64,000 bases of DNA, taken from the IMG/VR virus record IMGVR_UViG_3300027782_000042, one strand, 5' to 3'. The stretch is from an uncultured virus (IMG/VR IMGVR_UViG_3300027782_000042) (taxonomy: Duplodnaviria; Heunggongvirae; Uroviricota; Caudoviricetes). The translations under genes and the position numbers were made by a program. The notes under the pieces are model-generated. The model was not told where the DNA came from and made no database searches. It saw only the letters and a list, made by a program, of their open reading frames with translations. Shown here piece after piece: positions 44,601 to 55,059 of the stretch (position 1 is the first letter of the stretch; each line of letters starts with the position of its first letter).

Positions 44601-46301
44601 ATGGATAAAATTTATGATTTTTGTATTTTAATTACCACATATAATAGACCTGATTTTTTAAAAAGGTTATTAGATGATATAAATAACCAAAAAAAAGATT
44701 ATAATGTTTTGGTTGCGGTTTTTAATGATGGTAGCGACGTTGAATATGACCTTAGTAGGTATGACGTAAAAAAAATAGATATTTACCCAAACATGGGTAA
44801 AAAAAAGTATTATAATGTTATTAATAAAACTTTTGAATTTGTAAAAAATATTCATTCTAAATATTTTATTTATTTACCTGACGACATTAAATTAGTTGAT
44901 AATTTTTTTGAAGAAACTAAAGAGATGTACATAAAAATTGACTCAAGAAAAAAAATATGTTTAAACATATTAACAGACGATAGAGTTCTTAGAGATAATT
45001 GGGGTTACCCTAAAGGGGTGGATTATGGGGATTTTTATCAAACGCAATGGAATGACCTATGTTTTATTTGTGAAAAAAAGTTTTTTGAGTCCTTGGATTA
45101 TAAAATATATGATATACCACTATCTAGGTGGTCTAAAAACCCAAATCTAAGTTCTGGTGTTGGTCATCAAATAACTGATAGATTAAACAAAAAAAAGTTT
45201 TTCCTATACCACACCAAAAAATCTATGGTAATTCATGGGGATCATGAATCTAAAATGAATTATACTGAAAGATTAAAAACTAAATTAGTGACTAAACATA
45301 ATTTTGATTTATCTATAATTGTACCAACATATAAGAATACAAATTACCTTGACGAATGTATAAATTCTTTGGTCAAATCCACAGAAAATTATAATGTGGA
45401 GATTTTAATTGGGGTTGACGGGTGTAAAGAAACTATGGATTTTATTAAAGGAAAAAAGTTCCCAAAAAACGTAACATTTTTTTATTTCAATGAAAATGAA
45501 GGTCCTTACTCAATTAAGAACACTTTAACAAGTATATGTAATTCTAAAAATTTATTATTTTTTGATTCTGATGATATATCAGAAAAAGAATTAGTGTCAA
45601 CAATTATTAATAATATTGATAAATATGATTGTATAAAGCCAAAATATAAAGATTTTGGTGTTGGTATTACACCGTCAAATAAGTCACTTTTTGGTGAGGG
45701 TGTGTTTGCAATAACTAAGGAATTATTCTTAAATATGAATGGTTTTGAACCTTGGATGTGTGCTGCTGATTCTGATTTTATGGGTAGATTATATAAGAGA
45801 AAATGTAAAATACTACATACACCTGTAACTTTATTTAAAAGAAGAATTCATGATAATGGTTTAACAAGTCGTACTGACACCGGACTAAGATCACCAAAAA
45901 GATTCCAATATCAACAAATATCAAAATCTAAAAAAGGTGACGGCAATCCTAAAAAATTAAACATAAGGGATTTTAAAATTATTGACCATGATGGGATTTT
46001 AGAAACGTTTGTTTACCCTGAAATAGTTGAAACAAATAATGAAAAATGTTTGGTTTCTATTTTTAACAAAGAACCAAAAATAATAGAAGAAGTTTTTATT
46101 CGTAAAAAACAAAAAGTAGTTTCGGACAATCCTTTATTTAATATTCTTAAAAACAAAGAAAAAGTAACTGAAGTTAATATAGTAACAGAACAAAGAAAAA
46201 ATGTTGAACAAATAAAACAAAAAACAAAGAGACAAATTAATGATGAGTTTAATCCGCCAAAACCAAATAGAAGACTTGATCTACCAAAATTAAGATTTTA
46301 A
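44601..46301 (+). CDS. tandem GT2 glycosyltransferase
   Basis: ILITTYNR..DDI and SIIVPTYK..FFDSDD domains. Confidence 0.85.
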   Translation: MDKIYDFCILITTYNRPDFLKRLLDDINNQKKDYNVLVAVFNDGSDVEYDLSRYDVKKIDIYPNMGKKKYYNVINKTFEFVKNIHSKYFIYLPDDIKLVDNFFEETKEMYIKIDSRKKICLNILTDDRVLRDNWGYPKGVDYGDFYQTQWNDLCFICEKKFFESLDYKIYDIPLSRWSKNPNLSSGVGHQITDRLNKKKFFLYHTKKSMVIHGDHESKMNYTERLKTKLVTKHNFDLSIIVPTYKNTNYLDECINSLVKSTENYNVEILIGVDGCKETMDFIKGKKFPKNVTFFYFNENEGPYSIKNTLTSICNSKNLLFFDSDDISEKELVSTIINNIDKYDCIKPKYKDFGVGITPSNKSLFGEGVFAITKELFLNMNGFEPWMCAADSDFMGRLYKRKCKILHTPVTLFKRRIHDNGLTSRTDTGLRSPKRFQYQQISKSKKGDGNPKKLNIRDFKIIDHDGILETFVYPEIVETNNEKCLVSIFNKEPKIIEEVFIRKKQKVVSDNPLFNILKNKEKVTEVNIVTEQRKNVEQIKQKTKRQINDEFNPPKPNRRLDLPKLRF

Positions 46302-46345
46302 CTTGATATTGTTTTAAGTATTAAGTATTTTTAAATAAAAAACTT

Positions 46346-46534
46346 ATGTTCATTATAATTAAACACGTAAAAACAAATAATAAAGGAATTTCAGGTAAAA
46401 GACTTCCTGTAATATTATTAAATACCGAAACTGAAGTGTGGGAATTTAACACCATCGAAGAGGCTGAAAAAATGAAAGAGATCTTCCAAACTAATTCTGA
46501 TTCAGGTCACATATACGAAGTAAAAAAAATATAA
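46346..46534 (+). CDS. hypothetical protein
   Basis: ORF track. Confidence 0.7.
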   Translation: MFIIIKHVKTNNKGISGKRLPVILLNTETEVWEFNTIEEAEKMKEIFQTNSDSGHIYEVKKI

Positions 46535-46535
46535 T

Positions 46536-46652
46536 ATGGAAGAAATTTTAGAATTAATTCATAACGAATTTATAGAATCGGAAGATTACTACGTGTTCTT
46601 ACGTAGATTGGATGAAGAACAGGAAAATATTGAAAAAACGATTGTCAATTAA
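46536..46652 (+). CDS. small acidic hypothetical protein (38 aa)
   Basis: read by hand MEEILELIHNEF... Confidence 0.45.
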   Translation: MEEILELIHNEFIESEDYYVFLRRLDEEQENIEKTIVN

Positions 46653-46671
46653 AAAAAATCACATATATTTG
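46642..46671 (+). promoter_or_regulatory. Bacteroidota-type promoter upstream of leader 1
   Basis: TTG...TATATTTG. Confidence 0.55.
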
Positions 46672-46716
46672 TACAAGAATTAAAATTTTTAGAAAAAACA
46701 ATATATTTATAACAAG

Positions 46717-46827
46717 ATGAAAACAACTAATAGACATATGAACATTTGTAACCCGAGCATTCAGTGGTCGTTTAACGTGTATCGTACGCTTAAGTCGCAT
46801 AATAGGGCATTTTTATTTATGAGTTGA
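46717..46827 (+). CDS. attenuator leader peptide 1 (36 aa) for tRNA array 1
   Basis: MKTTNRHMNICNPSIQWSFNVYRTLKSHNRAFLFMS; codons match array-1 anticodons; followed by terminator. Confidence 0.8.
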   Translation: MKTTNRHMNICNPSIQWSFNVYRTLKSHNRAFLFMS

Positions 46828-46856
46828 TAAAGATTAACTAAACATATAAGAAATAT

Positions 46857-46889
46857 AAGACCCTAACTCAAAACAGTTAGGGTTTTTTT
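46857..46889 (+). terminator. attenuator terminator 1
   Basis: AAGACCCTAACT-caaaac-AGTTAGGGTTTTTTT. Confidence 0.85.
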
Positions 46890-46903
46890 ATACCCAAAAA
46901 TTT

Positions 46904-46976
46904 GGTTCCTTAGTATAGTTTGGTAATATCCCGGCTTTGTAACCCGGAGTCATCAGTTCGACCCTGATAGGAACCT
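46904..46976 (+). tRNA. trnT: tRNA-Thr(UGU)
   Basis: cloverleaf, loop TT-TGT-AA, one anticodon-stem mismatch. Confidence 0.8.
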
Positions 46977-46987
46977 CAAAAGAAAAA

Positions 46988-47003
46988 GTTCTTTGACATA
47001 TTG
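46988..47003 (+). promoter_or_regulatory. boxA-like antitermination site
   Basis: GTTCTTTGACATATTG. Confidence 0.6.
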
Positions 47004-47013
47004 GATTCATTAA

Positions 47014-47085
47014 TGTTCCCTCGTCTAATCGGCAGGACACATGGTTTTGGTCCATGGAATCGAGGTTCGAACCCTTGGGGAACAA
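47014..47085 (+). tRNA. trnQ: tRNA-Gln(UUG)
   Basis: cloverleaf, CATGG-TTTTGGT-CCATG. Confidence 0.9.
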
Positions 47086-47091
47086 CAATAA

Positions 47092-47175
47092 GGAAGATGA
47101 ATCACAACGGCTTGTGACCCCGTCTTGAAAACGGGCGGTACCGAAAGGTATTGGGATCGACACCTACTTCTTCCT
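47092..47175 (+). tRNA. trnS: tRNA-Ser(UGA)
   Basis: CCCGT-CTTGAAA-ACGGG, long variable arm. Confidence 0.8.
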
Positions 47176-47181
47176 CTATAA

Positions 47182-47257
47182 CGGGATGTGGACTAATTGA
47201 CTAAGTCGCCACTTTTGGGAAGTGGACATCATCCAGGTTTGAGTCCTGGTATCCCGA
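47182..47257 (+). tRNA. trnP: tRNA-Pro(UGG)
   Basis: CCACT-TTTGGGA-AGTGG. Confidence 0.85.
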
Positions 47258-47262
47258 CTAAT

Positions 47263-47338
47263 GTCTTCGTAGCTCAGTTGGTTTCAGAGCACTCCACTTT
47301 TAATGGAGGGGTCACAGGTTCGAACCCTGTCGGGGACA
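47263..47338 (+). tRNA. trnK: tRNA-Lys(UUU)
   Basis: CTCCA-CTTTTAA-TGGAG. Confidence 0.9.
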
Positions 47339-47346
47339 CAAAAAAA

Positions 47347-47377
47347 TTTGGTAGATTAAAAAAAACCATTAACTTTG
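47347..47377 (+). promoter_or_regulatory. Bacteroidota-type promoter
   Basis: TTTG...TAACTTTG just before ORF 47382. Confidence 0.65.
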
Positions 47378-47381
47378 TACT

Positions 47382-47597
47382 ATGAATAAAGTAGAGAAAA
47401 TTAAAAAAGGACTTCCAAACGGAATGGTTAAGGTTGGGGAAGAATGTGAGAGAGCAATCGTAAGATTGGTTAAACAAGGTAAATCCGAAAACGAGGCAAC
47501 AGAAATTGTTTTGAAACTATTAAAAGATAGTAAACCTTATATTGAACAAGGAATGTACTCTACCACAATTGAAAGTATTAAAATGATAACATCATAA
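47382..47597 (+). CDS. hypothetical protein
   Basis: ORF track; own promoter. Confidence 0.7.
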   Translation: MNKVEKIKKGLPNGMVKVGEECERAIVRLVKQGKSENEATEIVLKLLKDSKPYIEQGMYSTTIESIKMITS

Positions 47598-47599
47598 AC

Positions 47600-47673
47600 G
47601 CACCTTTAGCTCAGATGGTAGTAGCGGTTGTTTTACATACAACAGGTCACAGGTTCGATCCCTGTAGGGTGTA
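47600..47673 (+). tRNA. trnV: tRNA-Val(UAC)
   Basis: GTTGT-TTTACAT-ACAAC. Confidence 0.9.
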
Positions 47674-47677
47674 CAAA

Positions 47678-47799
47678 GGTTGATTGGGGAATGATATAAC
47701 GTTAACGTGTCAGTAGTTCGTAGTTATGTCGGAGTTTTAACTGTCATAGTAACGCCAATCATAAAAGGGGATGTCCACGGAACCATCTTCCCCTTTCCT
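47678..47799 (+). ncRNA. unidentified structured RNA
   Basis: TGATTGG/CCAATCA and AAAGGGGA/TCCCCTTT stems between tRNAs. Confidence 0.4.
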
Positions 47800-47804
47800 G
47801 AACT

Positions 47805-47890
47805 GGGAGAGTTGAGCAATTGGTTGGCTCAGCAGACTGTAAATCTGTCGTCGTGAGACCTTGGGGGTTCGAGTCCCTCCTCTCCCACCA
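47805..47890 (+). tRNA. trnY: tRNA-Tyr(GUA)
   Basis: GCAGA-CTGTAAA-TCTGT, variable arm, encoded CCA. Confidence 0.9.
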
Positions 47891-47896
47891 AAAAAT

Positions 47897-47969
47897 GGAC
47901 AAGTAGCTCAATTGGGAGAGCATCGTACTGTTAATACGAGGGTTGTAGGATCGTACCCTACCTTGTCCG
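47897..47969 (+). tRNA. trnN: tRNA-Asn(GUU)
   Basis: TCGTA-CTGTTAA-TACGA. Confidence 0.85.
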
Positions 47970-47976
47970 CAACAAT

Positions 47977-48049
47977 GCTCACGTAGCTTAATCGGGAAAG
48001 CACCACGCTGATATCGTGGAGAGAATAGGATCGTAACCTATCGTGAGCA
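47977..48049 (+). tRNA. trnI: tRNA-Ile(GAU)
   Basis: CCACG-CTGATAT-CGTGG. Confidence 0.85.
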
Positions 48050-48107
48050 CAAAAAGGGGAATAACTTGTGTGGGTGCCCCAACTACTGCAGGAGTACCAC
48101 ACTCTAT

Positions 48108-48193
48108 GGAAGATAAACCTTGATGGAGATAGGGTCCGCCTGCTAAGCGAGATGTACCCGTAAGGGTATTTGGTTCGATTCCAATGTCTTCCT
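48108..48193 (+). tRNA. trnS: tRNA-Ser(GCU)
   Basis: CGC-CTGCTAA-GCG, long variable arm. Confidence 0.75.
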
Positions 48194-48201
48194 CGATTAA
48201 A

Positions 48202-48285
48202 ATCCGGAAATTTTCCGGATAGGATGACTTTTTTTCCGGATAGACATCTACAATTGAATAATCTATTAGGAAAATTTCCGGATAG
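48202..48285. repeat. TTTCCGGATAG x3 with ATCCGGAAA-T-TTTCCGGAT palindrome
   Basis: direct inspection. Confidence 0.75.
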
Positions 48286-48299
48286 ATATAAAACAACAA

Positions 48300-48367
48300 C
48301 CCGTATGATCAGGGATCAAAGTTGGCTCATATCCGACTTGAGGTTGGTTCAAGTCCAACATACGGGA
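48300..48367 (+). tRNA. trnM: atypical tRNA-Met(CAU) with minimal D-arm
   Basis: CCCGTAT/ATACGGG acceptor, GATC-AGG-GATC D-arm, GTTGG-CTCATAT-CCGAC. Confidence 0.6.
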
Positions 48368-48373
48368 CTATAT

Positions 48374-48447
48374 GGTGTTTGTAGCTCAATCGGGAGAGCG
48401 TCGGTTTGTGAAGCCGAAAGTAGTGGGATCGAAACCCACCATTCACC
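48374..48447 (+). tRNA. trnH: tRNA-His(GUG)
   Basis: G-1, C73, TCGGT-TTGTGAA-GCCGA; two acceptor mismatches. Confidence 0.8.
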
Positions 48448-48449
48448 CA

Positions 48450-48578
48450 AAAGAATTTACAACGGACAAGGCTTAGGCAAGTGAGTTGAGAATGAGTAGT
48501 AGGAGATGTTATCGTTTGGACTACAGAAAGTTTGATACAAGAGATTGGTGGGATGCGAGTGGTTGACCAAAATTCTTT
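48450..48578 (+). ncRNA. unidentified RNA closed by terminal stem
   Basis: AAAGAATTT/AAATTCTTT ends. Confidence 0.35.
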
Positions 48579-48582
48579 AATT

Positions 48583-48655
48583 ACCTTCGTAGTTAAATAG
48601 AATAGAACCTGTGGCTACGGACCACAAGATGTGAGTTTGAGTCTCGCCGAAGGTA
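48583..48655 (+). tRNA. trnR: tRNA-Arg(ACG)
   Basis: TGTGG-CTACGGA-CCACA. Confidence 0.85.
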
Positions 48656-48656
48656 C

Positions 48657-48833
48657 AAAAGATGATAAGAAACGTAGAATGACAGACGTGGAGAGACGTG
48701 TCGTAAGGGTACACACTAAGGAAAGGTATTCAATCTTAATTGTATTGATGTAACAACCCAACTCTCTAATGGTGTGTGAAGCGTCGTAGTGATACGAACC
48801 CCAGATTCCTGATAAAGTCATTTATCATCTTTT
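48657..48833 (+). ncRNA. unidentified structured RNA (~175 nt)
   Basis: AAAAGATGATAA/TTATCATCTTTT closing stem, AATGAC/GTCATT, ACACAC/GTGTGT. Confidence 0.5.
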
Positions 48834-48837
48834 ATTT

Positions 48838-48910
48838 GCCCCCATCGTCCAACTGAACAGGACGTTCCCCTTCTAAGGGAAAGATCGGAGTTTGAATCTC
48901 TGTGGGGGTA
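48838..48910 (+). tRNA. trnR: tRNA-Arg(UCU)
   Basis: TTCCC-CTTCTAA-GGGAA. Confidence 0.85.
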
Positions 48911-48918
48911 CAAAACAC

Positions 48919-48989
48919 ACATGGTACAGACAAGGTGTCGGTCAGGTCTCCAAAACCTCGACGGGTTAGTTCGATTCTAACACCATGTG
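48919..48989 (+). tRNA. trnW: atypical tRNA-Trp(CCA) with minimal D-arm
   Basis: ACATGGT/ACCATGT, GACA-AGG-TGTC D-arm, AGGT-CTCCAAA-ACCT. Confidence 0.7.
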
Positions 48990-49035
48990 CAAAAATTAAT
49001 TTTGCCAGTTAAAAAAAATTTCGTATCTTTACAGT

Positions 49036-49530
49036 ATGAAAGACGCACTACCATATTGTAATACAGGAAAAGCCATTAAAGGTTATGAAGAATCTGCAAT
49101 CGCAAAAAATGAAACCAACGATTGTGTTGTAAGAGCATTTGCATCTTGTTTTGATGTGTCTTACGATTACGCTCACAAATACGTTAGAGAAAATTTTGGT
49201 CGTAGAGATCGTAACGGTACTTATGGTACTGTAGATAAAATGACTAAACTTGCAGAAAATAGAAGTCAAGTAAACTACAAAAAAGTTAAGTGTGTTGGTA
49301 AATTAAACAATTACCGTAGACACACTTTGGAGTACGATGTTAAAGTAAAGGGTGAGAGAGTTAAACGTAAAATGACTGTGGGTACATTTACAAAACAAAA
49401 CCCTATTGGGACATTCTTTATGTTAGTTAGTCGTCACGCTTTCACAATCAAAGATGGTGTGGTAATTGGTAACCACGAGGATTCAACCAAGAAAAAACGT
49501 GTATTACTTCATGCGTTTGAAGTTAAATAA
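49036..49530 (+). CDS. hypothetical protein (NDCVVRA motif)
   Basis: ORF track; host-type promoter directly upstream. Confidence 0.8.
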   Translation: MKDALPYCNTGKAIKGYEESAIAKNETNDCVVRAFASCFDVSYDYAHKYVRENFGRRDRNGTYGTVDKMTKLAENRSQVNYKKVKCVGKLNNYRRHTLEYDVKVKGERVKRKMTVGTFTKQNPIGTFFMLVSRHAFTIKDGVVIGNHEDSTKKKRVLLHAFEVK

Positions 49531-49593
49531 GACGGGAGGCGAGAGTTGAGGGTAGAACCATTAGGATACCTCAACCAAGTCCTCCCTGAAGAA

Positions 49594-49666
49594 GGACAGG
49601 TAGCTCAGTTGGTAGAGCTCAGGATTGAAGATCCTGGAGTCGGGGGTTCGACACCCTCTCTGTCCA
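49594..49666 (+). tRNA. trnF: tRNA-Phe(GAA)
   Basis: CAGGA-TTGAAGA-TCCTG. Confidence 0.9.
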
Positions 49667-49682
49667 CAAATAAAAAGAAATA

Positions 49683-50138
49683 ATGAACAGAGTATTTAGG
49701 ACAATTAATGGTGAAGCGATACCTGATGTGGTTAAACACACCTTAGATGTTTTAAAGGAATGTCCATGGGTTGAGATCCATATTGGAACCGATTCACAAA
49801 ACCATAGAAGAAGTACCGTATATGTTACGGTAATTGCTTACAGGTATGGTAATCGTGGTGTTCACTACATCCTACACAAACAAAAAGTGAAAAAAATAAA
49901 AGACAAGTGGACACGTCTTTGGAATGAAGCCGATTATTCAATTGAGGTTGCCGAATGGTTAACTCAAAAAGTAAAAGTTAAGGTTGAAATAGATTTGGAT
50001 TATAATTGTGAAGATAAACATTACAGTTCAAAACTTGTTTCTCCTGTTGTTGGGTGGGCAACGTCGTTAGGTTATAAAGCAAATATTAAACCTGACAATC
50101 AAATTGCAACAAGAGCGGCAGATCACCACTGCCGTTAA
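49683..50138 (+). CDS. RNase H-like YkuK (DUF458) family protein
   Basis: IHIGTDSQ, RLWNEA, EIDLDYN, IKP..ATRAAD. Confidence 0.85.
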   Translation: MNRVFRTINGEAIPDVVKHTLDVLKECPWVEIHIGTDSQNHRRSTVYVTVIAYRYGNRGVHYILHKQKVKKIKDKWTRLWNEADYSIEVAEWLTQKVKVKVEIDLDYNCEDKHYSSKLVSPVVGWATSLGYKANIKPDNQIATRAADHHCR

Positions 50139-50140
50139 TT

Positions 50141-50213
50141 GCTCAGGTGGTCGAGTGGTTTAGGCCCAGGTCTGCAAAACCTTGGTACGGGGGTTCGAAT
50201 CCCTCCCTGAGCT
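50141..50213 (+). tRNA. trnC: tRNA-Cys(GCA)
   Basis: AGGT-CTGCAAA-ACCT, U73. Confidence 0.85.
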
Positions 50214-50220
50214 CAAAAAT

Positions 50221-50294
50221 GCCTTCGTGGTGGAATTGGTATACACGTCACTCTTAGAAAGTGAATTTTGCAGGTTCGAGTCCTGCCGGAGGTA
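50221..50294 (+). tRNA. trnL: tRNA-Leu(UAG), short variable region
   Basis: TCACT-CTTAGAA-AGTGA, Leu-type D-arm. Confidence 0.8.
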
Positions 50295-50313
50295 CAAACA
50301 AAAAAAAGTGAAG

Positions 50314-50556
50314 ATGGAAAAGTTGATGAAAAATAAAGAAGGAGAATACCTATACGTTTTTGATATAATTCAAAACGGTAAAGTCGCAGGGTCAAATATT
50401 TTGTGGAGTAAGAACTTCATCCAAGTAATGGCGAGTGCAAAAAAAAGATTTGGTAATGTGGATAATGAGTCTTTTAAAAGATTAACCAAAGATGAGTACG
50501 CAACTATGATCGAGGATCAAAAAACAAAAAAACTTGATAAAAAAAGAAAGTGGTGA
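50314..50556 (+). CDS. hypothetical protein
   Basis: start adjusted to MEKLMKN downstream of tRNA-Leu. Confidence 0.65.
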   Translation: MEKLMKNKEGEYLYVFDIIQNGKVAGSNILWSKNFIQVMASAKKRFGNVDNESFKRLTKDEYATMIEDQKTKKLDKKRKW

Positions 50557-50595
50557 TTTAAATCGTATATTGAATATTTATTAATAAAACATTTA

Positions 50596-50928
50596 ATGAA
50601 AAAAGTAATTAGACTAACAGAATCAGATTTAACAAGAATTGTTAAACGTGTAATTAATGAAAATGACAACTATAAAGACAGAAGTATGTATGATCCGTAC
50701 TATAGTGAAGAACTTCAAGAGTTAATTGAAGAGGCGAGAGATTTCCTTGAAAATGAATGTGGATATGACATTGAAGAAATCAATTCAATGGATGAATTTG
50801 ATATTATTGAGGCGTTATATGCTGATAATAATGAAGATTTAGCTGATGAAATTGAAAAATTATTAAACCAAGAAGGTTTTTATAATGCCGATGAGGACGA
50901 AGACTTTGATGATGAAGAATATGCATAA
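50596..50928 (+). CDS. acidic protein, MKKVIRLTESDL propeptide
   Basis: ORF track. Confidence 0.8.
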   Translation: MKKVIRLTESDLTRIVKRVINENDNYKDRSMYDPYYSEELQELIEEARDFLENECGYDIEEINSMDEFDIIEALYADNNEDLADEIEKLLNQEGFYNADEDEDFDDEEYA

Positions 50929-50951
50929 TAAAAAATATAAAAAACATAAAA

Positions 50952-51284
50952 ATGAGAAATAGATTAACAGAAAGAGACTTATCACGTATTGTTAAACGTG
51001 TAATTAATGAAAATAAAGAGGGTATGATTCGTATCCCAAGTATGTATGAGGGTGTTAGAATGGAACTTGGAAAAAGTGCTAACCCACAAGATGTCATTGA
51101 CATGTATAATGAACTTGTTGAAGAGGGGTCTACTCTTGTTGACTATTCTGAGTATGGAACTGAAGGTATGTTTTATAATGAAGAAGGTGATGAGATCCCT
51201 GTTAATGTAATTCTTGATGAACTTAACTACGCAATAGTTGGTGAAGAAGATGAAGATTACGACGATGAAGATGGAAATTATTAA
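50952..51284 (+). CDS. acidic protein, RLTERDL..VINE propeptide
   Basis: ORF track. Confidence 0.8.
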   Translation: MRNRLTERDLSRIVKRVINENKEGMIRIPSMYEGVRMELGKSANPQDVIDMYNELVEEGSTLVDYSEYGTEGMFYNEEGDEIPVNVILDELNYAIVGEEDEDYDDEDGNY

Positions 51285-51344
51285 ATAAAACTTGACACTT
51301 TTAAAAAGTATCATATATTTATAACAAAACAAATAAAAACGCAA

Positions 51345-51419
51345 ATGAAAAATTTACATATCATATTATTAGGCGGATTGGCGATAGCTGAGGATCGTTC
51401 CTATAAGGAGATGGTATGA
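51345..51419 (+). CDS. attenuator leader peptide 2 (24 aa) for tRNA array 2
   Basis: MKNLHIILLGGLAIAEDRSYKEMV; core codons match array-2 anticodons; followed by terminator. Confidence 0.8.
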   Translation: MKNLHIILLGGLAIAEDRSYKEMV

Positions 51420-51443
51420 TAATTTAACACATAATAAATTTTG

Positions 51444-51475
51444 AAAACCCATCTCCAAAAGAGGTGGGTTTTTTT
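51444..51475 (+). terminator. attenuator terminator 2
   Basis: AAAACCCATCTC-caaaa-GAGGTGGGTTTTTTT. Confidence 0.85.
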
Positions 51476-51490
51476 GTTCTTTGAAATTTT
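51476..51490 (+). promoter_or_regulatory. boxA-like site
   Basis: GTTCTTTGAAATTTT directly after terminator 2. Confidence 0.5.
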
Positions 51491-51518
51491 GGAAATTAAA
51501 AAATAAACAGTATCTTTG
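51488..51518 (+). promoter_or_regulatory. Bacteroidota-type promoter
   Basis: TTTG...TATCTTTG. Confidence 0.6.
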
Positions 51519-51522
51519 TTTT

Positions 51523-51813
51523 ATGATAACATTTGATGATATAGAGTTTAAACCACATGGTATTGGTAATGGGGTTCACGGATTACTGTTTTTTCCTGGA
51601 GGATACGGAATCTCGGTTGTAAGATTTAAATCTCCTTTTGGTGGGGGTGGATCATATACTTCAGATGATGATGATTATGAGGTCGCCGTTATTAAAGGAA
51701 CAAAAGATGATTGGGAAATTTCTTATGACACAAAAATAACTAATGATGTTTTGGGTTATCAGACTAAAGAGGATATAAATAAATTAATTACTCAAATTTT
51801 AAGATACTGTTAA
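51523..51813 (+). CDS. hypothetical phage protein
   Basis: start adjusted; FPGGYGISVV..YEVAV..DVLGY. Confidence 0.75.
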   Translation: MITFDDIEFKPHGIGNGVHGLLFFPGGYGISVVRFKSPFGGGGSYTSDDDDYEVAVIKGTKDDWEISYDTKITNDVLGYQTKEDINKLITQILRYC

Positions 51814-51814
51814 A

Positions 51815-51979
51815 ATGAAAACAAAGGAAAAAAATATCGTACATAAGATGATCTTGGGTAGTCAAAGGGTTGCTCAAAAAGAACAAGGTTTTTTTGATGG
51901 TAGATTTGTTACTAGATCTATGGATTTAAAAAATAATTACACAAGGAAAGAAAAACACAAAAAAAGTTTGGTAGATTAG
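51815..51979 (+). CDS. small basic protein, ArfA-like ribosome rescue factor candidate
   Basis: read by hand: ..FDGRFVTRSMDLKNNYTRKEKHKK.. Confidence 0.55.
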   Translation: MKTKEKNIVHKMILGSQRVAQKEQGFFDGRFVTRSMDLKNNYTRKEKHKKSLVD

Positions 51980-51998
51980 AAAAAACCTTGTATATTTG
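51967..51998 (+). promoter_or_regulatory. Bacteroidota-type promoter
   Basis: TTTG...TATATTTG. Confidence 0.6.
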
Positions 51999-52061
51999 TA
52001 AGACAAACAACGGGGGTAGGAAGTGAGAGGTTGGTGTCCTACTCCCGTGAAGACAGAAGAA

Positions 52062-52074
52062 GTTCATTGAAATA
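52062..52074 (+). promoter_or_regulatory. boxA-like site
   Basis: GTTCATTGAAATA after hairpin 52010-52048. Confidence 0.5.
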
Positions 52075-52080
52075 AAAATA

Positions 52081-52165
52081 TAGTGGTTGTAAGAAACGGG
52101 AAACTTGTAAAGTACATTAACCTGTTGGCTCAAGATGGTGAAACAAGAGTGTGAGTCAACTACTA
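52081..52165 (+). ncRNA. unidentified structured RNA
   Basis: TAGTGGTTG/CAACTACTA closing stem. Confidence 0.4.
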
Positions 52166-52177
52166 ACTACATAAATT

Positions 52178-52252
52178 TGTCAGGTGGGCGTAATGAGGGA
52201 CGGTGCCCGAATCCTATAGGTTGCTTATCCGGTTCGAGTCCGGCCCTGACAA
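52178..52252 (+). ncRNA. tRNA-like RNA without canonical anticodon arm (family copy 1)
   Basis: TGTCAGG/CCTGACA acceptor, GGTTCGAGTCC T-arm. Confidence 0.6.
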
Positions 52253-52265
52253 AAAAATTTTAAAT

Positions 52266-52387
52266 AGGTAAGTGGCGGAATTGGCAGACGCTTAGGTTTA
52301 TTCCCCGTAAGAAGTCACCGAGATATAGCTGGGGATGTCTCTTGAAAAGGGAACTATATCGTACAGGTTCGAATCCTGTTTTACCTA
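52266..52387 (+). ncRNA. tRNA scaffold with ~70-nt structured insert replacing the anticodon arm
   Basis: acceptor, TGGCGGAATTGGCAGACGC D-arm, CAGGTTCGAATCCTG T-arm. Confidence 0.6.
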
Positions 52388-52392
52388 CATAT

Positions 52393-52463
52393 TGCGGTTT
52401 AGTGTAATTGGTAGCACACGGGGCTCATAACCCTGAGGCCAGGTTCGAGCCCTGAATCCGCTA
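52393..52463 (+). tRNA. trnfM: initiator tRNA-fMet(CAU)
   Basis: 1:72 mismatch, three G:C pairs in anticodon stem, CTCATAA loop. Confidence 0.8.
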
Positions 52464-52469
52464 CTAAAT

Positions 52470-52550
52470 GCTGACGTACCAGTGGACGCTTATATCGTCT
52501 ATGACTGTAGTGGTAAGTTTAAAACGTTGGTTCGAATCCAACCGTCAGTA
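52470..52550 (+). tRNA. atypical tRNA-like RNA with UAU (Ile) anticodon loop
   Basis: GCTGACG/CGTCAGT acceptor, GGACG-CTTATAT-CGTCT, canonical T-arm, no D-arm. Confidence 0.5.
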
Positions 52551-52556
52551 CAATAA

Positions 52557-52628
52557 GCGGGTATCGTATAATGGTTATTACTCCACACTTCCAATGTGGA
52601 GACGAGTGTTCGATTCATTCTACCCGCA
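52557..52628 (+). tRNA. trnG: tRNA-Gly(UCC)
   Basis: CCACA-CTTCCAA-TGTGG. Confidence 0.9.
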
Positions 52629-52633
52629 CAAAT

Positions 52634-52706
52634 GGGCCTGATGCCGACGGCAGGTCGACTGATTTGCAATCAGATCGTATGGGTTCGATTCCCACAGTGT
52701 CCACCA
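52634..52706 (+). tRNA. trnA: tRNA-Ala(UGC)
   Basis: G3:U70, CTGA-TTTGCAA-TCAG, acceptor bulge, encoded CCA. Confidence 0.7.
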
Positions 52707-52728
52707 AATAAACAATTAATACAAATGA

Positions 52729-52884
52729 ATGATGAGAGAAGTTTTATCAGGAACCTCAGAGTCATCGAAAGTTAAAATGATTAGAGTTAACACGAATACT
52801 GACTGGTTGAAGAAACTGAAAAAAACGCTTAATAGAACGAAGTACAAGTTTAGGGTGGGGAGCGGGTCCCACAAAAAAATTTAA
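52729..52884 (+). CDS. small basic hypothetical protein (51 aa)
   Basis: read by hand MMREVLSG...GSHKKI. Confidence 0.35.
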   Translation: MMREVLSGTSESSKVKMIRVNTNTDWLKKLKKTLNRTKYKFRVGSGSHKKI

Positions 52885-52891
52885 AAAAAGA

Positions 52892-52923
52892 TTTGGTAGA
52901 TCAAAATAGATTACATATCTTTG
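52892..52923 (+). promoter_or_regulatory. Bacteroidota-type promoter
   Basis: TTTG...TATCTTTG. Confidence 0.65.
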
Positions 52924-52943
52924 TAGAACAAAAATAAAGAACT

Positions 52944-53225
52944 ATGACAAACACAGAGACAATTAAAACAGTAGGTTTAAGAATTATAAAGATTGAGGGA
53001 TATGATTATTGTTTGACAGGATACCCAAACAAAAACACAATCCGTGAATGGGAAGACGCATATGAGTTTGAAAGTTTTGTTCAGAATGTCTTAAAGATTG
53101 ATGGTGAATTTGATTCTGAAAGTGGTCAGTTCTACGTGTACTTCAAAACCAAACAAAAGGCTACCTCCTCTTTGAATAAAATTGAAAAACATTTCAAAAA
53201 AGTTGGTGAAATGTTAGGTTTGTAA
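52944..53225 (+). CDS. hypothetical protein
   Basis: ORF track. Confidence 0.75.
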   Translation: MTNTETIKTVGLRIIKIEGYDYCLTGYPNKNTIREWEDAYEFESFVQNVLKIDGEFDSESGQFYVYFKTKQKATSSLNKIEKHFKKVGEMLGL

Positions 53226-53236
53226 TAAAACAAAAT

Positions 53237-53308
53237 GGTCCCATCGACTATCGGTTAGGTCGCCAGGTTTTCATCCTGGAAAGTCGGGTTCGACTCCCGG
53301 TGGGACTA
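53237..53308 (+). tRNA. trnE: tRNA-Glu(UUC)
   Basis: CCAGG-TTTTCAT-CCTGG. Confidence 0.9.
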
Positions 53309-53368
53309 CAATGAAATGAACAACATAGCACACAAGTTGTACCTCTACGGTTTTAAAGTGTGGTTATT

Positions 53369-53444
53369 GGAGATTAGGTCAAATGGTTAAGATGTCGCCC
53401 TGTCACGGCGTTCGGAGCGGGTTCGACTCCCGTAATCTCCGCCA
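53369..53444 (+). tRNA. trnD: tRNA-Asp(GUC)
   Basis: CGCC-CTGTCAC-GGCG, G73, CCA. Confidence 0.9.
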
Positions 53445-53451
53445 AAAGAGA

Positions 53452-53467
53452 GTTCTTTGAAATATTG
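53452..53467 (+). promoter_or_regulatory. boxA-like site
   Basis: GTTCTTTGAAATATTG. Confidence 0.6.
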
Positions 53468-53603
53468 ATAGTGGTTTTCCCCACCTCAACGGATGTCGAC
53501 AATCCAGAGTGGATCAGGAATTCAGCACCCTCTGCCGGGGCCCTGAGAAAACTCAGAAGACGCAGTTAAGATTGGAGCGAGAAGGGTACTCCATCACTAT
53601 CAA
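53465..53603 (+). ncRNA. unidentified structured RNA (~140 nt)
   Basis: TTGATAGTG/CACTATCAA closing stem, GC-rich interior hairpins. Confidence 0.5.
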
Positions 53604-53611
53604 CAATATTT

Positions 53612-53685
53612 AGTCAGGTGGCTAATTGGTAACGCGCCCCGACAGAATGTTGGGGAGATTGCAGGTTCGAGTCCTGTCCTGACTA
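53612..53685 (+). ncRNA. tRNA-like RNA with extended anticodon stem (GAA at tip, no U33)
   Basis: AGTCAGG/CCTGACT acceptor, CCCCGACA-GAA-TGTTGGGG, canonical T-arm. Confidence 0.6.
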
Positions 53686-53775
53686 CAAATATTAAAAAAT
53701 TATGACACCAATATTATTTGTATTATTTGTTTTGTTTATCTTTATGGTAAGAAAGAGAAAATAACTCTTTAAAAT

Positions 53776-53862
53776 GCTCGGATGGTGGAATTGGTAGACA
53801 CGACAGGTTTAAGCTCTGTTGACCAGTGGGTTGTGAGGGTTCGAGTCCCTCTTCGAGTACCA
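53776..53862 (+). tRNA. trnL: tRNA-Leu(UAA)
   Basis: ACAGG-TTTAAGC-TCTGT, long variable arm, CCA. Confidence 0.9.
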
Positions 53863-53869
53863 ATGATAA

Positions 53870-53957
53870 ACTTCAGTACCCGTACCGCCAACGTAGGGTT
53901 AAATTAGATACAATTTCGTGTTACATTTATGTATGTGCGGGGAGTAGAATGCTGAAG
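53870..53957 (+). ncRNA. unidentified long hairpin RNA
   Basis: CTTCAGTA/TGCTGAAG and CCCGTAC/GTGCGGG stems. Confidence 0.4.
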
Positions 53958-53967
53958 AGTCGTTGTT

Positions 53968-54042
53968 TGTCAGGAGTGTAATGAGGCATGGTGCCGAGTC
54001 CTTTATGGTTGCTCATTGTGGGTTCGAATCCCACCCTGACAT
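53968..54042 (+). ncRNA. tRNA-like RNA without canonical anticodon arm (family copy 2)
   Basis: TGTCAGG/CCTGACA acceptor, GTGGGTTCGAATCCCAC T-arm, interior similar to 52178. Confidence 0.6.
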
Positions 54043-54046
54043 CAAA

Positions 54047-54121
54047 GGTCCTATAGCTCAGTTGGTTAGTAGCACTTGACTCATAATCAAGGGGTCGCAG
54101 GTTCGAGTCCTGCTGGGACCA
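54047..54121 (+). tRNA. trnI: tRNA-Ile2(CAU, lysidine type)
   Basis: CTTGA-CTCATAA-TCAAG; GGTCCTA acceptor with C4:G69/C5:G68 as in Ile2 tRNAs. Confidence 0.75.
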
Positions 54122-54165
54122 CAAAATATATTTATTTTTTAGTAAAATATTACTATATTAAAAAT

Positions 54166-54237
54166 GGCCCCATAGTTAAATGGATATAACGAATCTCTTC
54201 TAAAGATTAGTTCCTAGTTCGATTCTAGGTGGGGCTA
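54166..54237 (+). tRNA. trnR: tRNA-Arg(UCU), second copy
   Basis: AATCT-CTTCTAA-AGATT. Confidence 0.9.
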
Positions 54238-54254
54238 CATTTTTTTAAAAAAAT

Positions 54255-54285
54255 TTTGTAGATCTCAGAAATTCCCTTATCTTTG
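54255..54285 (+). promoter_or_regulatory. Bacteroidota-type promoter
   Basis: TTTG...TATCTTTG. Confidence 0.6.
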
Positions 54286-54309
54286 TTTAAACCAAAAAAC
54301 ATTAAGGAT

Positions 54310-55059
54310 ATGACGACAGACATCACAACTCAGGTAAAAAACTACAACGGTAAAAATTCTTTCATCTTGAAAATGAAGGACGCAGTCTCTAAATACGGTT
54401 CTTTGACAGTTAACCAAAGATCTGCGGTTGAGAAGATTTTCAACAATCCTGTTGAGGCAAAATCAGTTGAGATGACTGACGATATGAAAAAAATCGCATC
54501 TTACGAAGGTCCTAACTCTTTCGTTATTGACCTTAAAAACAAACTTAACCAATACGGTAAACTTTCTGAAAAACAGATCTCTACTGGTTTGAAACAAATC
54601 GATAAAGAGGAGAACAAAACTGTTATCCGTAAAGTTAACGTTCCTGCGATTGGAGACACAATCAAAGTTGGTCGAAAAATCGGACAACAACTTAAAGAAC
54701 AATACGGACTTAACTTTAACCCAATCCTTTTGGATATCACTAAAGTTTTGTCTTTCACATCAAAGGCGGTTAAATTCTCAGGTAAAATGACCGTAAAACG
54801 TGGGGATGTTTGTGTGTGTTGTGCTAAGACTCTTACAGACGAGTTCTCAATGTTGACTAAAATGGGTAAGACATGTGCTAAACACATGGGGGTTACATAC
54901 ATTACGGATGTGAATCAAGTTGACAAATTCCGTGAAGAATACCTTAAGAGGGTTGAGGAGATCGGTGAGATGGAATTTTGGGTTCCAAATTCACAAATCA
55001 AGTCTTGGGAAGGTGACACCAAAGTTCTTCAAAAAATGTCACACCTTTGGTTTAAATAA
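54310..55059 (+). CDS. hypothetical protein with N-terminal repeat and DUF6011-like zinc finger
   Basis: Y.G.NSF..KYG.L..Q twice; CVCCAKTLTDEFS..MGKTCAKH. Confidence 0.75.
   Translation: MTTDITTQVKNYNGKNSFILKMKDAVSKYGSLTVNQRSAVEKIFNNPVEAKSVEMTDDMKKIASYEGPNSFVIDLKNKLNQYGKLSEKQISTGLKQIDKEENKTVIRKVNVPAIGDTIKVGRKIGQQLKEQYGLNFNPILLDITKVLSFTSKAVKFSGKMTVKRGDVCVCCAKTLTDEFSMLTKMGKTCAKHMGVTYITDVNQVDKFREEYLKRVEEIGEMEFWVPNSQIKSWEGDTKVLQKMSHLWFK

Follow-up and report, generated by a model that had tools for sequence, protein, structure and literature searches.

Two putative leader-peptide attenuators with codon-matched open reading frames in the tRNA gene region of an uncultured virus

The closest described counterparts of the units considered here are the thr, ilvGMEDA and ilvBN leaders, multivalent leader-peptide attenuators of enterobacterial amino-acid operons, which combine a short leader open reading frame (ORF) with an intrinsic terminator, carry codons for several amino acids and can fold into mutually exclusive 1:2, 2:3 and 3:4 helices. 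A comparable layout is predicted for two units in 64,000 nucleotides of DNA from an uncultured virus, a large phage from a lake (IMG/VR record IMGVR_UViG_3300027782_000042; this whole stretch is called the window below). To our knowledge, all described leader-peptide attenuators control genes of amino-acid biosynthesis, amino-acid transport or aminoacyl-tRNA synthetases, whereas the genes behind the two leader terminators of the window belong to none of these classes and encode transfer RNAs (tRNAs). Control of phage tRNA genes is largely obscure, and the very reason for carrying them is debated between codon compensation and counter-defence. Action of phage tRNAs as a counter-defence against anticodon nucleases has been described (PMC10264068, PMC11464382); the available portions of these two sources concern the tRNAs themselves and not their transcriptional control, giving a motive for sensing the loss of particular tRNAs. 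A full-text literature search, in which subscription journals and older papers on phages T4 and T5 are thinly covered, yielded no account of a leader peptide or attenuator placed before tRNA genes. An earlier note on this DNA had proposed that its tRNA genes are split into two arrays, each governed by an attenuator whose leader peptide is written in the codons read by that array, and the computational analysis presented here follows up this proposal.

We assign a probability of roughly 0.7 to the reading that both units are ribosome-mediated (leader-peptide) transcription attenuators gating read-through into phage tRNA genes and tuned to the codons which those arrays read. According to this scheme, a strong promoter would start a transcript holding the short leader ORF, in which segment 1 (the ORF start) could pair with segment 2 (the last codons), the latter alternatively pairing with segment 3 (the 5′ arm of the terminator), and segment 3 otherwise pairing with segment 4 to form the terminator itself. 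A ribosome running smoothly to the stop codon would cover segment 2, so that the terminator forms and the tRNA genes stay silent; a ribosome delayed early in the ORF by shortage of a charged tRNA would mask segment 1, permit the 2:3 pairing and let RNA polymerase read into the tRNA genes. The output of each tRNA block would rise while the codons that it reads are decoded slowly and cease once the supply is restored, that is, under negative feedback. Translation of the leader ORFs, ribosome stalling, control of read-through and the physiological trigger are what we infer. The attenuator proposal of the earlier note draws its strength from the terminators, from conserved ORFs whose ends form a covarying antiterminator, from a predicted start-proximal anti-antiterminator and from a codon partition, and is tempered by a weak switch RNA in leader 1, by a leader 2 that is not adjacent to tRNA genes and by internal promoters.

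Relatives of the locus were collected by means of two protein anchors, which gave 21 + 67 related loci (88) from viral contigs, some of them 270-304 kb long; both leader regions are present in about 50 of the 88 at 72-100% identity. Distinct sequences number 33 for leader 1, two of which are cut by contig ends leaving 31 complete, and 31 for leader 2, one of which (L034) was missed by the terminator pattern and is absent from later steps; L086, identical to the window, was excluded from alignment A1. A DNA search of the phage collection with positions 46300-52400 returned tRNA-level matches only and no close relative. An ATG followed by an open frame of 34-37 codons is found in all 31 complete distinct homologs of leader 1, and one of 22-24 codons in all 31 distinct homologs of leader 2, so that the absence of conserved leader ORFs, named beforehand as an outcome that would speak against the idea, was not encountered. 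The +1 and +2 frames carry stops in 31/31 sequences for leader 1 and 30/30 for leader 2; indels measure 3 nt within the leader ORFs and mostly 1-2 nt in the spacers. About 4-6.5% of single-base changes would make a stop codon, and among the derived codon states, read from a protein-guided alignment of relatives, stops amount to 0 of 124 in leader 1 and 0 of 54 in leader 2. Because the alternative frames are closed, the indels come in threes and no derived codon state is a stop, we judge the leader frames to be under selection to stay open. Invariant at fixed positions are P, W and Y in leader 1, which also keeps an MK start and a T, and the start MKNLH in leader 2.

The codon content of the two leaders was compared against a background of 57 long ORFs of the window (14,958 codons), in which the 15 codons assigned to array 2 only (TTA, TTG, ATA, GGN, GCN, GAR and GAY) make up 32.2%. 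Leader 1 contains 2 such codons among 35 (P 1.9e-4), with 0-2 in each of the 31 homologs, and 33 of its 35 codons are read by array 1 if two ATG are counted via the Met gene found by homology (31 without them); leader 2 contains 13 among 23 (P 0.014), and within codons 4-17 the proportion reaches 12/14. Synonymous choice follows the same line: Leu is written as CTN in leader 1, though TTR constitutes 71% of Leu codons in the window ORFs, and Ile as ATT or ATC; in leader 2, Leu is spelled TTR and Ile mostly ATA. The partition is kept under substitution, since the derived codon states of leader 1 include 7 array-2-only codons among 124, against 39.9 expected from genome usage and 21.9 from usage-weighted single-base neighbours, and those in columns 2-16 of leader 2 include 21 among 30, against 9.7 and 13.1; the claim that leader 1 is written in array-1 codon families and the core of leader 2 in those of array 2 is thus borne out. 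At least one codon is present in leader 1 for each of the 18 tRNA species of array 1 (18/18), whereas random draws of 35 codons cover 11.8 on average, which corresponds to P 2e-5 for background draws and 1.4e-3 when array-1 codons only are drawn. The 31 homologs cover 16-18 of the 18 species, with only Arg species ever missing and the position of several codons shifting.

For the switch RNA, leader 2 provides the clearer case. The end of its ORF, GGAGATGG (51407-51414), is complementary to CCATCTCC in the 5′ arm of the terminator (51449-51456), and over 26 distinct sequences 96.2% of the 208 cells of this predicted antiterminator are paired, compensatory double changes occurring in 4 of its 8 pairs. 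None of 500 shuffles reaches the covariation score, and sliding the partner by 1-3 columns leaves 44-68% paired; terminator 2 itself, with 95.8% of cells paired and 2 of 11 pairs compensatory, sets a standard which the antiterminator equals. If the 3′ arm of the terminator is removed, the predicted partner of the 5′ arm is the ORF end (transcript nt 58-73) in 29 of 30 sequences, and the duplex between each ORF end and its own terminator arm averages -13.39 kcal/mol versus -11.70 +/- 0.33 kcal/mol for swapped arms (0/2000 permutations). Full-length folds pair the ORF start (nt 13-20) with nt 67-74. This 1:2 helix is complete in the 24-codon subfamily (112/112 cells paired over 14 distinct sequences, 1 compensatory change), a result equalled by 71 of 500 shuffles, as variation there is too small, and the 22-codon subfamily has a similar helix in another register. 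The predicted pairings of leader 2 amount to the four-segment arrangement known from trp-type attenuators; its segment 2 falls within the ORF, immediately ahead of the stop codon.

In leader 1, 4 of the 11 pairs of the terminator show compensatory changes (31 sequences), and the candidate antiterminator strand corresponds to codons 28-31, around GGG; this stretch (nt 82-91) is a recurrent predicted partner of the terminator 5′ arm in about two thirds of the sequences. Since subgroups of leader 1 pair in different registers, a per-sequence duplex swap test and subgroup folds replaced family-wide column counts. The swap test gave a mean of -7.87 kcal/mol for the own arm versus -6.95 +/- 0.27 kcal/mol for swapped arms (1/2000 permutations); the most diverged subgroup (6 sequences) has a predicted 15-bp helix between the ORF end and the spacer together with the terminator 5′ arm, and the consensus fold of another subgroup (11 sequences) contains a pairing of the ORF start with the segment-2 region, a hairpin over the stop codon and the terminator. 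Taken together, the predicted antiterminator is only partly present in leader 1 and is present in leader 2.

Comparable layouts occur in other lineages. The related loci L080-L082 carry a third leader, with a 28-codon ORF and without evident sequence similarity to leaders 1 and 2, in which (L080) four segments are again predicted, the ORF end GGATCCAG pairing with the terminator 5′ arm and the ORF start pairing with the ORF end in another register. In L080 and L081 this leader stands 67 nt before the tRNA genes Thr-Gly-(Ser)-Leu(UAG)-Leu(UAA), with Arg(UCU), Met and Ile(UAU) located later. The array of L080 reads 14 of the 27 leader codons (17 with the Ser tRNA of L081) versus 7.5-9.0 expected (P 0.007 to 0.0014), and without the last six codons 13-16 of 21 match, the background being the codon usage of the window. 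In a matrix of 4 leaders by 6 arrays, the own array gives the highest enrichment in 4/4 rows. Two cultured marine phages contain similar arrangements. Tenacibaculum phage Gundel_1 (MT732474, L089 2470-2592) has a 20-codon ORF starting MKTK, a terminator and adjoining tRNA genes (fold z -4.36), with 5 of 9 tRNA species covered by the leader; over its whole length this leader weakly matches the Rfam Phe_leader family (27.9 bits, E 0.019, below the gathering score of 55). In Maribacter phage Panino (PP540027, L090 1529-1695) an MKTK ORF annotated as a 33-codon hypothetical protein is followed by a terminator and, directly past its T-rich tail, by tRNA-Tyr, and the leader covers 6 of 6 species. 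Codon match of both leaders with their own arrays is suggestive only. At yet another related locus, L078 (11560-11890), a promoter and a leader-1-like ORF come immediately after the end of a leader-2-like unit with its terminator; this ORF holds Glu and CAG codons and precedes tRNAs Thr, Phe, Gln(CUG), Glu and Asp.

The position of tRNA genes relative to the leaders differs between the two units. tRNA-Thr(UGU) starts 10-14 nt past the T-tract of leader 1 in all 31 distinct relatives (14 nt in the window), and because this leaves no room for a promoter before tRNA-Thr, at least the Thr-Gln-Ser-Pro-Lys block would be made only by read-through of terminator 1. The possibility that array expression comes fully from internal promoters, which the earlier note had listed as a ground for abandoning its proposal, is therefore countered for this block in 31/31 sequences, though internal promoter-like sites do exist. 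Two 21-mers of the form TTTGGTAGATTARAAAAAACC, at 47347 and 51967, differ from each other only at the R position and are each followed by TAnnTTTG (2 matches versus 0.04 expected); they resemble promoters of the Bacteroidota type. Likewise, the claim that each array is preceded by its own leader is correct for leader 1, which tRNA-Thr adjoins, and does not hold for leader 2, which is not directly before tRNA genes in the window.

A number of observations weigh against the attenuator reading or against its tuning to particular codons. Leader 2 of the window is separated by 917 nt from the first tRNA of array 2, and in between lie a boxA-like site, a promoter-like sequence at about 51488, two ORFs, the promoter-like 21-mer at 51967 and a structured RNA. 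Among 30 relatives, only 13 have tRNA-Leu(UAA) 25-109 nt past leader 2 (that of the window is at 53776), and in the other 17, the window included, either no tRNA follows or the nearest one lies beyond 200 nt; transcription of most tRNAs could start, independently of the leaders, at the internal promoter-like 21-mers (47347 and 51967). The antiterminator of leader 1 in the window is a duplex of 5-6 bp with -7.5 kcal/mol versus -14.9 for the terminator; in the window and its close relatives it ranges from -5 to -7.5 kcal/mol, no better than shuffled controls; in a truncated-fold test, upstream pairing of the terminator 5′ arm was, for most close relatives, as frequent with shuffled upstream sequence, and RNAalifold applied to the leader-1 alignment cut before the 3′ arm returned no consensus pairs, that is, no family-wide antiterminator. 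Leader 2 covers 7 of 9 array-2 species (P 0.26), and its match to the window's own array, if the Ala gene found by homology is left out, is 12/23 (P 0.13). The match of the L078 leader to its own array (10/27, P 0.11) and those of Gundel_1 (8/19, P 0.17) and Panino (12/32, P 0.10) are not significant. No Rfam leader family (Trp, His, Leu, Thr and Phe leaders, Bacteroid-trp) matches positions 46500-54400 at E up to 1 or the whole window at gathering scores. Binomial, shuffle and permutation statistics used throughout treat related sequences as independent, ignoring shared ancestry. Metatranscriptome contigs (4 runs, 6-19% of sampled words) map to the tRNAs, to some of the ORFs and to the structured RNA, leave the leaders almost uncovered (bins 46714-46920 and 51268-51474) and show neither transcript ends nor levels.

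On the fine scale, the leaders follow the arrays loosely. In 27 relatives with complete arrays, 61 losses of consensus tRNAs were counted, and in 50 of them the leader keeps the codon, which also weighs on the unfavourable side; the 11 losses mirrored by codon loss all concern Arg(ACG) or Arg(UCU), and some of the "losses" may be ARAGORN misses, as happened in the window. The codon/anticodon covariation anticipated for relatives is accordingly seen in the kept partition and is weak below that level (11/61, Arg only). This bears on a further-reaching view, which we hold as a possibility with less than even odds, that phage tRNA arrays act as replacement modules which are induced on demand and limit themselves, a trait common among phages of Bacteroidota, Gundel_1 and Panino among them, with the leader serving as a codon-by-codon checklist in which the loss of any listed tRNA switches on the block with its replacement. 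The trigger could, for instance, be a host anticodon nuclease that cuts the tRNA, or an arrest of tRNA synthesis in the host; the link to anticodon nucleases of the host is attractive and purely conjectural. A strict checklist is weakened by the unmirrored losses (50/61), the internal promoters, the weak switch of leader 1 and a leader 2 without adjacent tRNA.

Some of the same facts may be read in another way, namely that the attenuators report general translation capacity or amino-acid starvation and that constraints on base composition or RNA structure produced the codon partition as a side effect. We regard this as unlikely, although G is the first letter in 12 of the 15 array-2-only codons, almost any shortage would stall a ribosome on leader 1 with its 17 amino acids, the 50 unmirrored losses agree with this reading, and the G+C share at third codon positions in leader 1 is 15/35 versus 21% in window ORFs, implying many rare codons of any kind. 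Avoidance of G cannot give the synonymous choice, which tracks the arrays (CTN and ATT/ATC versus TTR and mostly ATA), and the unrelated leader of L080 has Gly, TTA and ATA codons where its own array has Gly, Leu(UAA) and Ile(UAU). It is still less probable that the short ORFs encode small proteins, or that the transcripts function as small RNAs, in either case with a separate terminator, the tRNAs being made by constitutive leak-through and from internal promoters. Residues kept in place (the MK start; in leader 1 also P, W, Y and T), the existence of internal promoter-like sites and the annotation of the Panino homolog as a hypothetical protein would suit such genes; covariation of the ORF end with the terminator 5′ arm is needless for a free-standing gene, and the explanation is further opposed by the tRNA start 10-14 nt past the T-tract in 31/31 sequences and by the retention of codon presence for each tRNA species while codon position moves.

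The promoters and boxA-like sites admit an account in which the terminators are overcome by a protein or by Nus-type antitermination (lambda Q/N-like, boxA/NusB-NusE) loaded at the shared promoter motif or at a boxA-like site, and the ORFs are incidental. The shared 15-mer overlaps both promoters, the sequence of promoter, short transcript and strong terminator resembles lambda PR′-tR′, and all three exact boxA-like sites fall within the tRNA region; yet open frames, 3-nt indels, codon partition and 2:3 covariation are left unexplained, the boxA-like site of leader 1 is located past the terminator and past tRNA-Thr, and no antiterminator gene was found, though none was searched for; we consider this account improbable. 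Hardly credible, in our estimation, is a role of the leader peptides as nascent-chain arrest peptides of the TnaC/SecM kind, sensing a small molecule or the state of the ribosome: the invariant P, W and Y of leader 1 and the invariant MKNLH start of leader 2 are in its favour, but most positions vary freely within the codon set of the array.

Positions of the elements discussed are collected in Table 1. The pattern TTGWCA-N16-TATATTT has zero-mismatch matches in the window at 46642 and 51292 only, and its -10 part is formed by ATATATTTATAACAA; this 15-mer is exactly present in the 64 kb at 46701 and 51313 only, once before each leader ORF (with up to 2 mismatches there are 8 matches versus 2.56 expected, and 0 of 100 shuffles reach 8). 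Leader 1 is preceded by a second, weaker promoter-like site, TTAAAA-N16-TATATT at 46680-46707, for which ATATATTTATAACAA at 46701 supplies the -10 element. The boxA-like GTTCTTTGAMAT matches exactly at 46988, 51476 and 53452, all within the tRNA region, and is not enriched with up to 2 mismatches (41 matches versus 31 expected). Sites GTTCTTTGAMAT and GTTCTTTGACAT are candidate boxA elements, and the GTTCTTTGAMAT copies may be boxA-type antitermination sites of long untranslated operons. The uniform architecture that the earlier note ascribed to the two units is confirmed as to promoter motif, ORF and terminator and has to be corrected in two respects: the antiterminator is weak in leader 1 here and the boxA-like site does not directly follow terminator 1. 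A simple terminator scan of the + strand between the two leaders revealed no further terminator-like site.

Table 1. Coordinates of leader units, promoter-like and boxA-like sites and tRNA arrays in the window.
Feature	Position	Strand	Remark
Promoter-like P1a, TTGTCA-N16-TATATTT	46642..46670	+	Upstream of leader 1; kept in relatives
Shared motif ATATATTTATAACAA	46701..46715	+	2 nt 5′ of leader-1 ATG
Leader 1 ORF, 36 codons + TGA	46717..46827	+	Conserved open frame
Candidate segment 2 of leader 1 (TAGGGC)	46803..46808	+	5′ antiterminator strand, partner 46859-46864
Hairpin over leader-1 stop codon	46823..46838	+	6 pairs; one with AU/UA compensation in 5/11 sequences
Intrinsic terminator 1, stem then seven T	46857..46889	+	Starts 30 nt past leader-1 stop; dG -14.9 kcal/mol
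tRNA array 1: Thr, Gln, Ser, Pro, Lys, Val, Tyr, Asn, Ile, Ser, Met, His, Arg, Arg, Trp, Phe, Cys, Leu(UAG)	46904..50295	+	ORFs interspersed
boxA-like GTTCTTTGACAT	46988..46999	+	Between tRNA-Thr and tRNA-Gln, not directly past terminator 1
Internal promoter-like 21-mer TTTGGTAGATTAAAAAAAACC	47347..47367	+	Before ORF 47382-47597
Promoter-like P2, TTGACA-N16-TATATT	51292..51327	+	Includes ATATATTTATAACAA at 51313-51327; near-invariant in relatives
Leader 2 ORF, 24 codons + TGA	51345..51419	+	Conserved open frame
Leader 2 segment 1, CATATCAT	51357..51364	+	Pairs with 51411-51418
Leader 2 segment 2	51407..51418	+	GGAGATGG (51407-51414) pairs with 51449-51456; 51411-51418 with segment 1
Intrinsic terminator 2, G+C-rich hairpin + seven T	51443..51475	+	24-28 nt past leader-2 stop; dG -17.6 kcal/mol
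boxA-like GTTCTTTGAAAT	51476..51487	+	Directly past terminator 2; GTTCTTTGACAT in most relatives
Internal promoter-like 21-mer	51967..51987	+	Before structured RNA and array 2
tRNA array 2: fMet, Ile(UAU)-like, Gly, Ala, Glu, Asp, Phe, Leu(UAA), Ile(UAU)-like, Met/Ile2(CAU), Arg(UCU)	52393..54238	+	

The window is AT-rich (26-41% G+C in 2-kb steps) and carries on its + strand, at 46904-54238, a dense tRNA set, for which ARAGORN with default settings reports 22 genes and Rfam 23. Relaxed ARAGORN adds Ser(UGA) 47092-47176, Ser(GCU) 48108-48194, Trp(CCA) 48919-48990 and two weak Ile(UAU)-like genes; elongator Met (48300-48368) and Ala(UGC) (52634-52702), missed by ARAGORN, were found by homology to tRNAs of relatives (98.6% and 91-96% identical, respectively). 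The species listed earlier for the two arrays are correct according to ARAGORN, Rfam and homology, and the list for array 2 has to be supplemented by a second Phe(GAA) at 53612-53686. The tRNA order of array 1 is kept in relatives. A tRNA-like gene at 52266-52387 has an insert of ~40-50 nt (Rfam tRNA, 32.7 bits) and is read by the intron mode of ARAGORN as Thr(UGU) with a 37-nt intron.

For ORFs located within the arrays, no informative family was obtained except for an RNase H-like ORF of 151 amino acids (PF04308, E 1.3e-25) at 49683-50138, between tRNA-Phe and tRNA-Cys, which is full-length with 67-97% identity in more than 60 of the 67 related loci. Two tandem ORFs of 110 amino acids (50596-50928 and 50952-51284), without family match, share an N-terminal stretch (..RIVKRVINEN..), have acidic tails and are probably paralogs. 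Between the 21-mer at 51967-51987 and array 2, downstream of a hairpin at 52005-52045, a structured RNA of ~125 nt (52063-52190) is conserved, for which there is no Rfam match at E up to 1. Its RNAalifold consensus over 33 distinct relatives contains a 9-bp helix (GTTGRYTCA / TGARYCAAC) in which 5 pairs are compensatory (whole fold: 6). A second pairing, CTYG with CRAG, is changed on both sides in the window as judged by eye. In many relatives a tRNA comes directly after this RNA, which may act in processing or represent another type of leader.

If ribosome-mediated attenuation does operate at these tRNA genes, tRNA supply would be sensed via the decoding speed of a test peptide and held by negative feedback, and trp-type attenuation would extend from amino-acid genes to tRNA genes. 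Should the checklist view also prove true, ribosome-mediated attenuation would act as a viral sensor of host translational sabotage; the counter-defence idea becomes directly testable at the matching leader, for which Gundel_1 and Panino, having analogous leaders, represent usable laboratory systems. As for annotation, the label of hypothetical protein should be avoided for such ORFs of 20-40 codons where they precede tRNA arrays.

Among the known systems, T-box riboswitches are similar in that read-through of a terminator is set by the state of tRNA, and differ in binding uncharged tRNA directly, without a ribosome, and in controlling genes of aminoacyl-tRNA synthetases or amino-acid metabolism, whereas the phage units keep an ORF; the Rfam T-box model has no match in the window. 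The boxA/Nus system of ribosomal RNA operons has a boxA-like GTTCTTTGA near the start of untranslated RNA operons, and lambda PR′-tR′ with Q shares a strong promoter, a short transcript and a strong terminator; unlike the phage leaders, neither of the two needs a translated leader or codon logic. With trpL, hisL, leuL and pheL (Rfam Trp_leader, His_leader, Leu_leader and Phe_leader) the phage units share the logic of the switch and differ from them by having no tandem runs of one codon. Compared to the thr, ilvGMEDA and ilvBN leaders, which have biosynthetic enzymes downstream and runs of codons for 1-3 amino acids, the phage terminators are followed by tRNA genes, and as many as 17 amino acids and 18 tRNA species are represented in a phage leader; its segment 2 is situated inside the ORF just before the stop codon, and the setting is a phage of Bacteroidota-type hosts.

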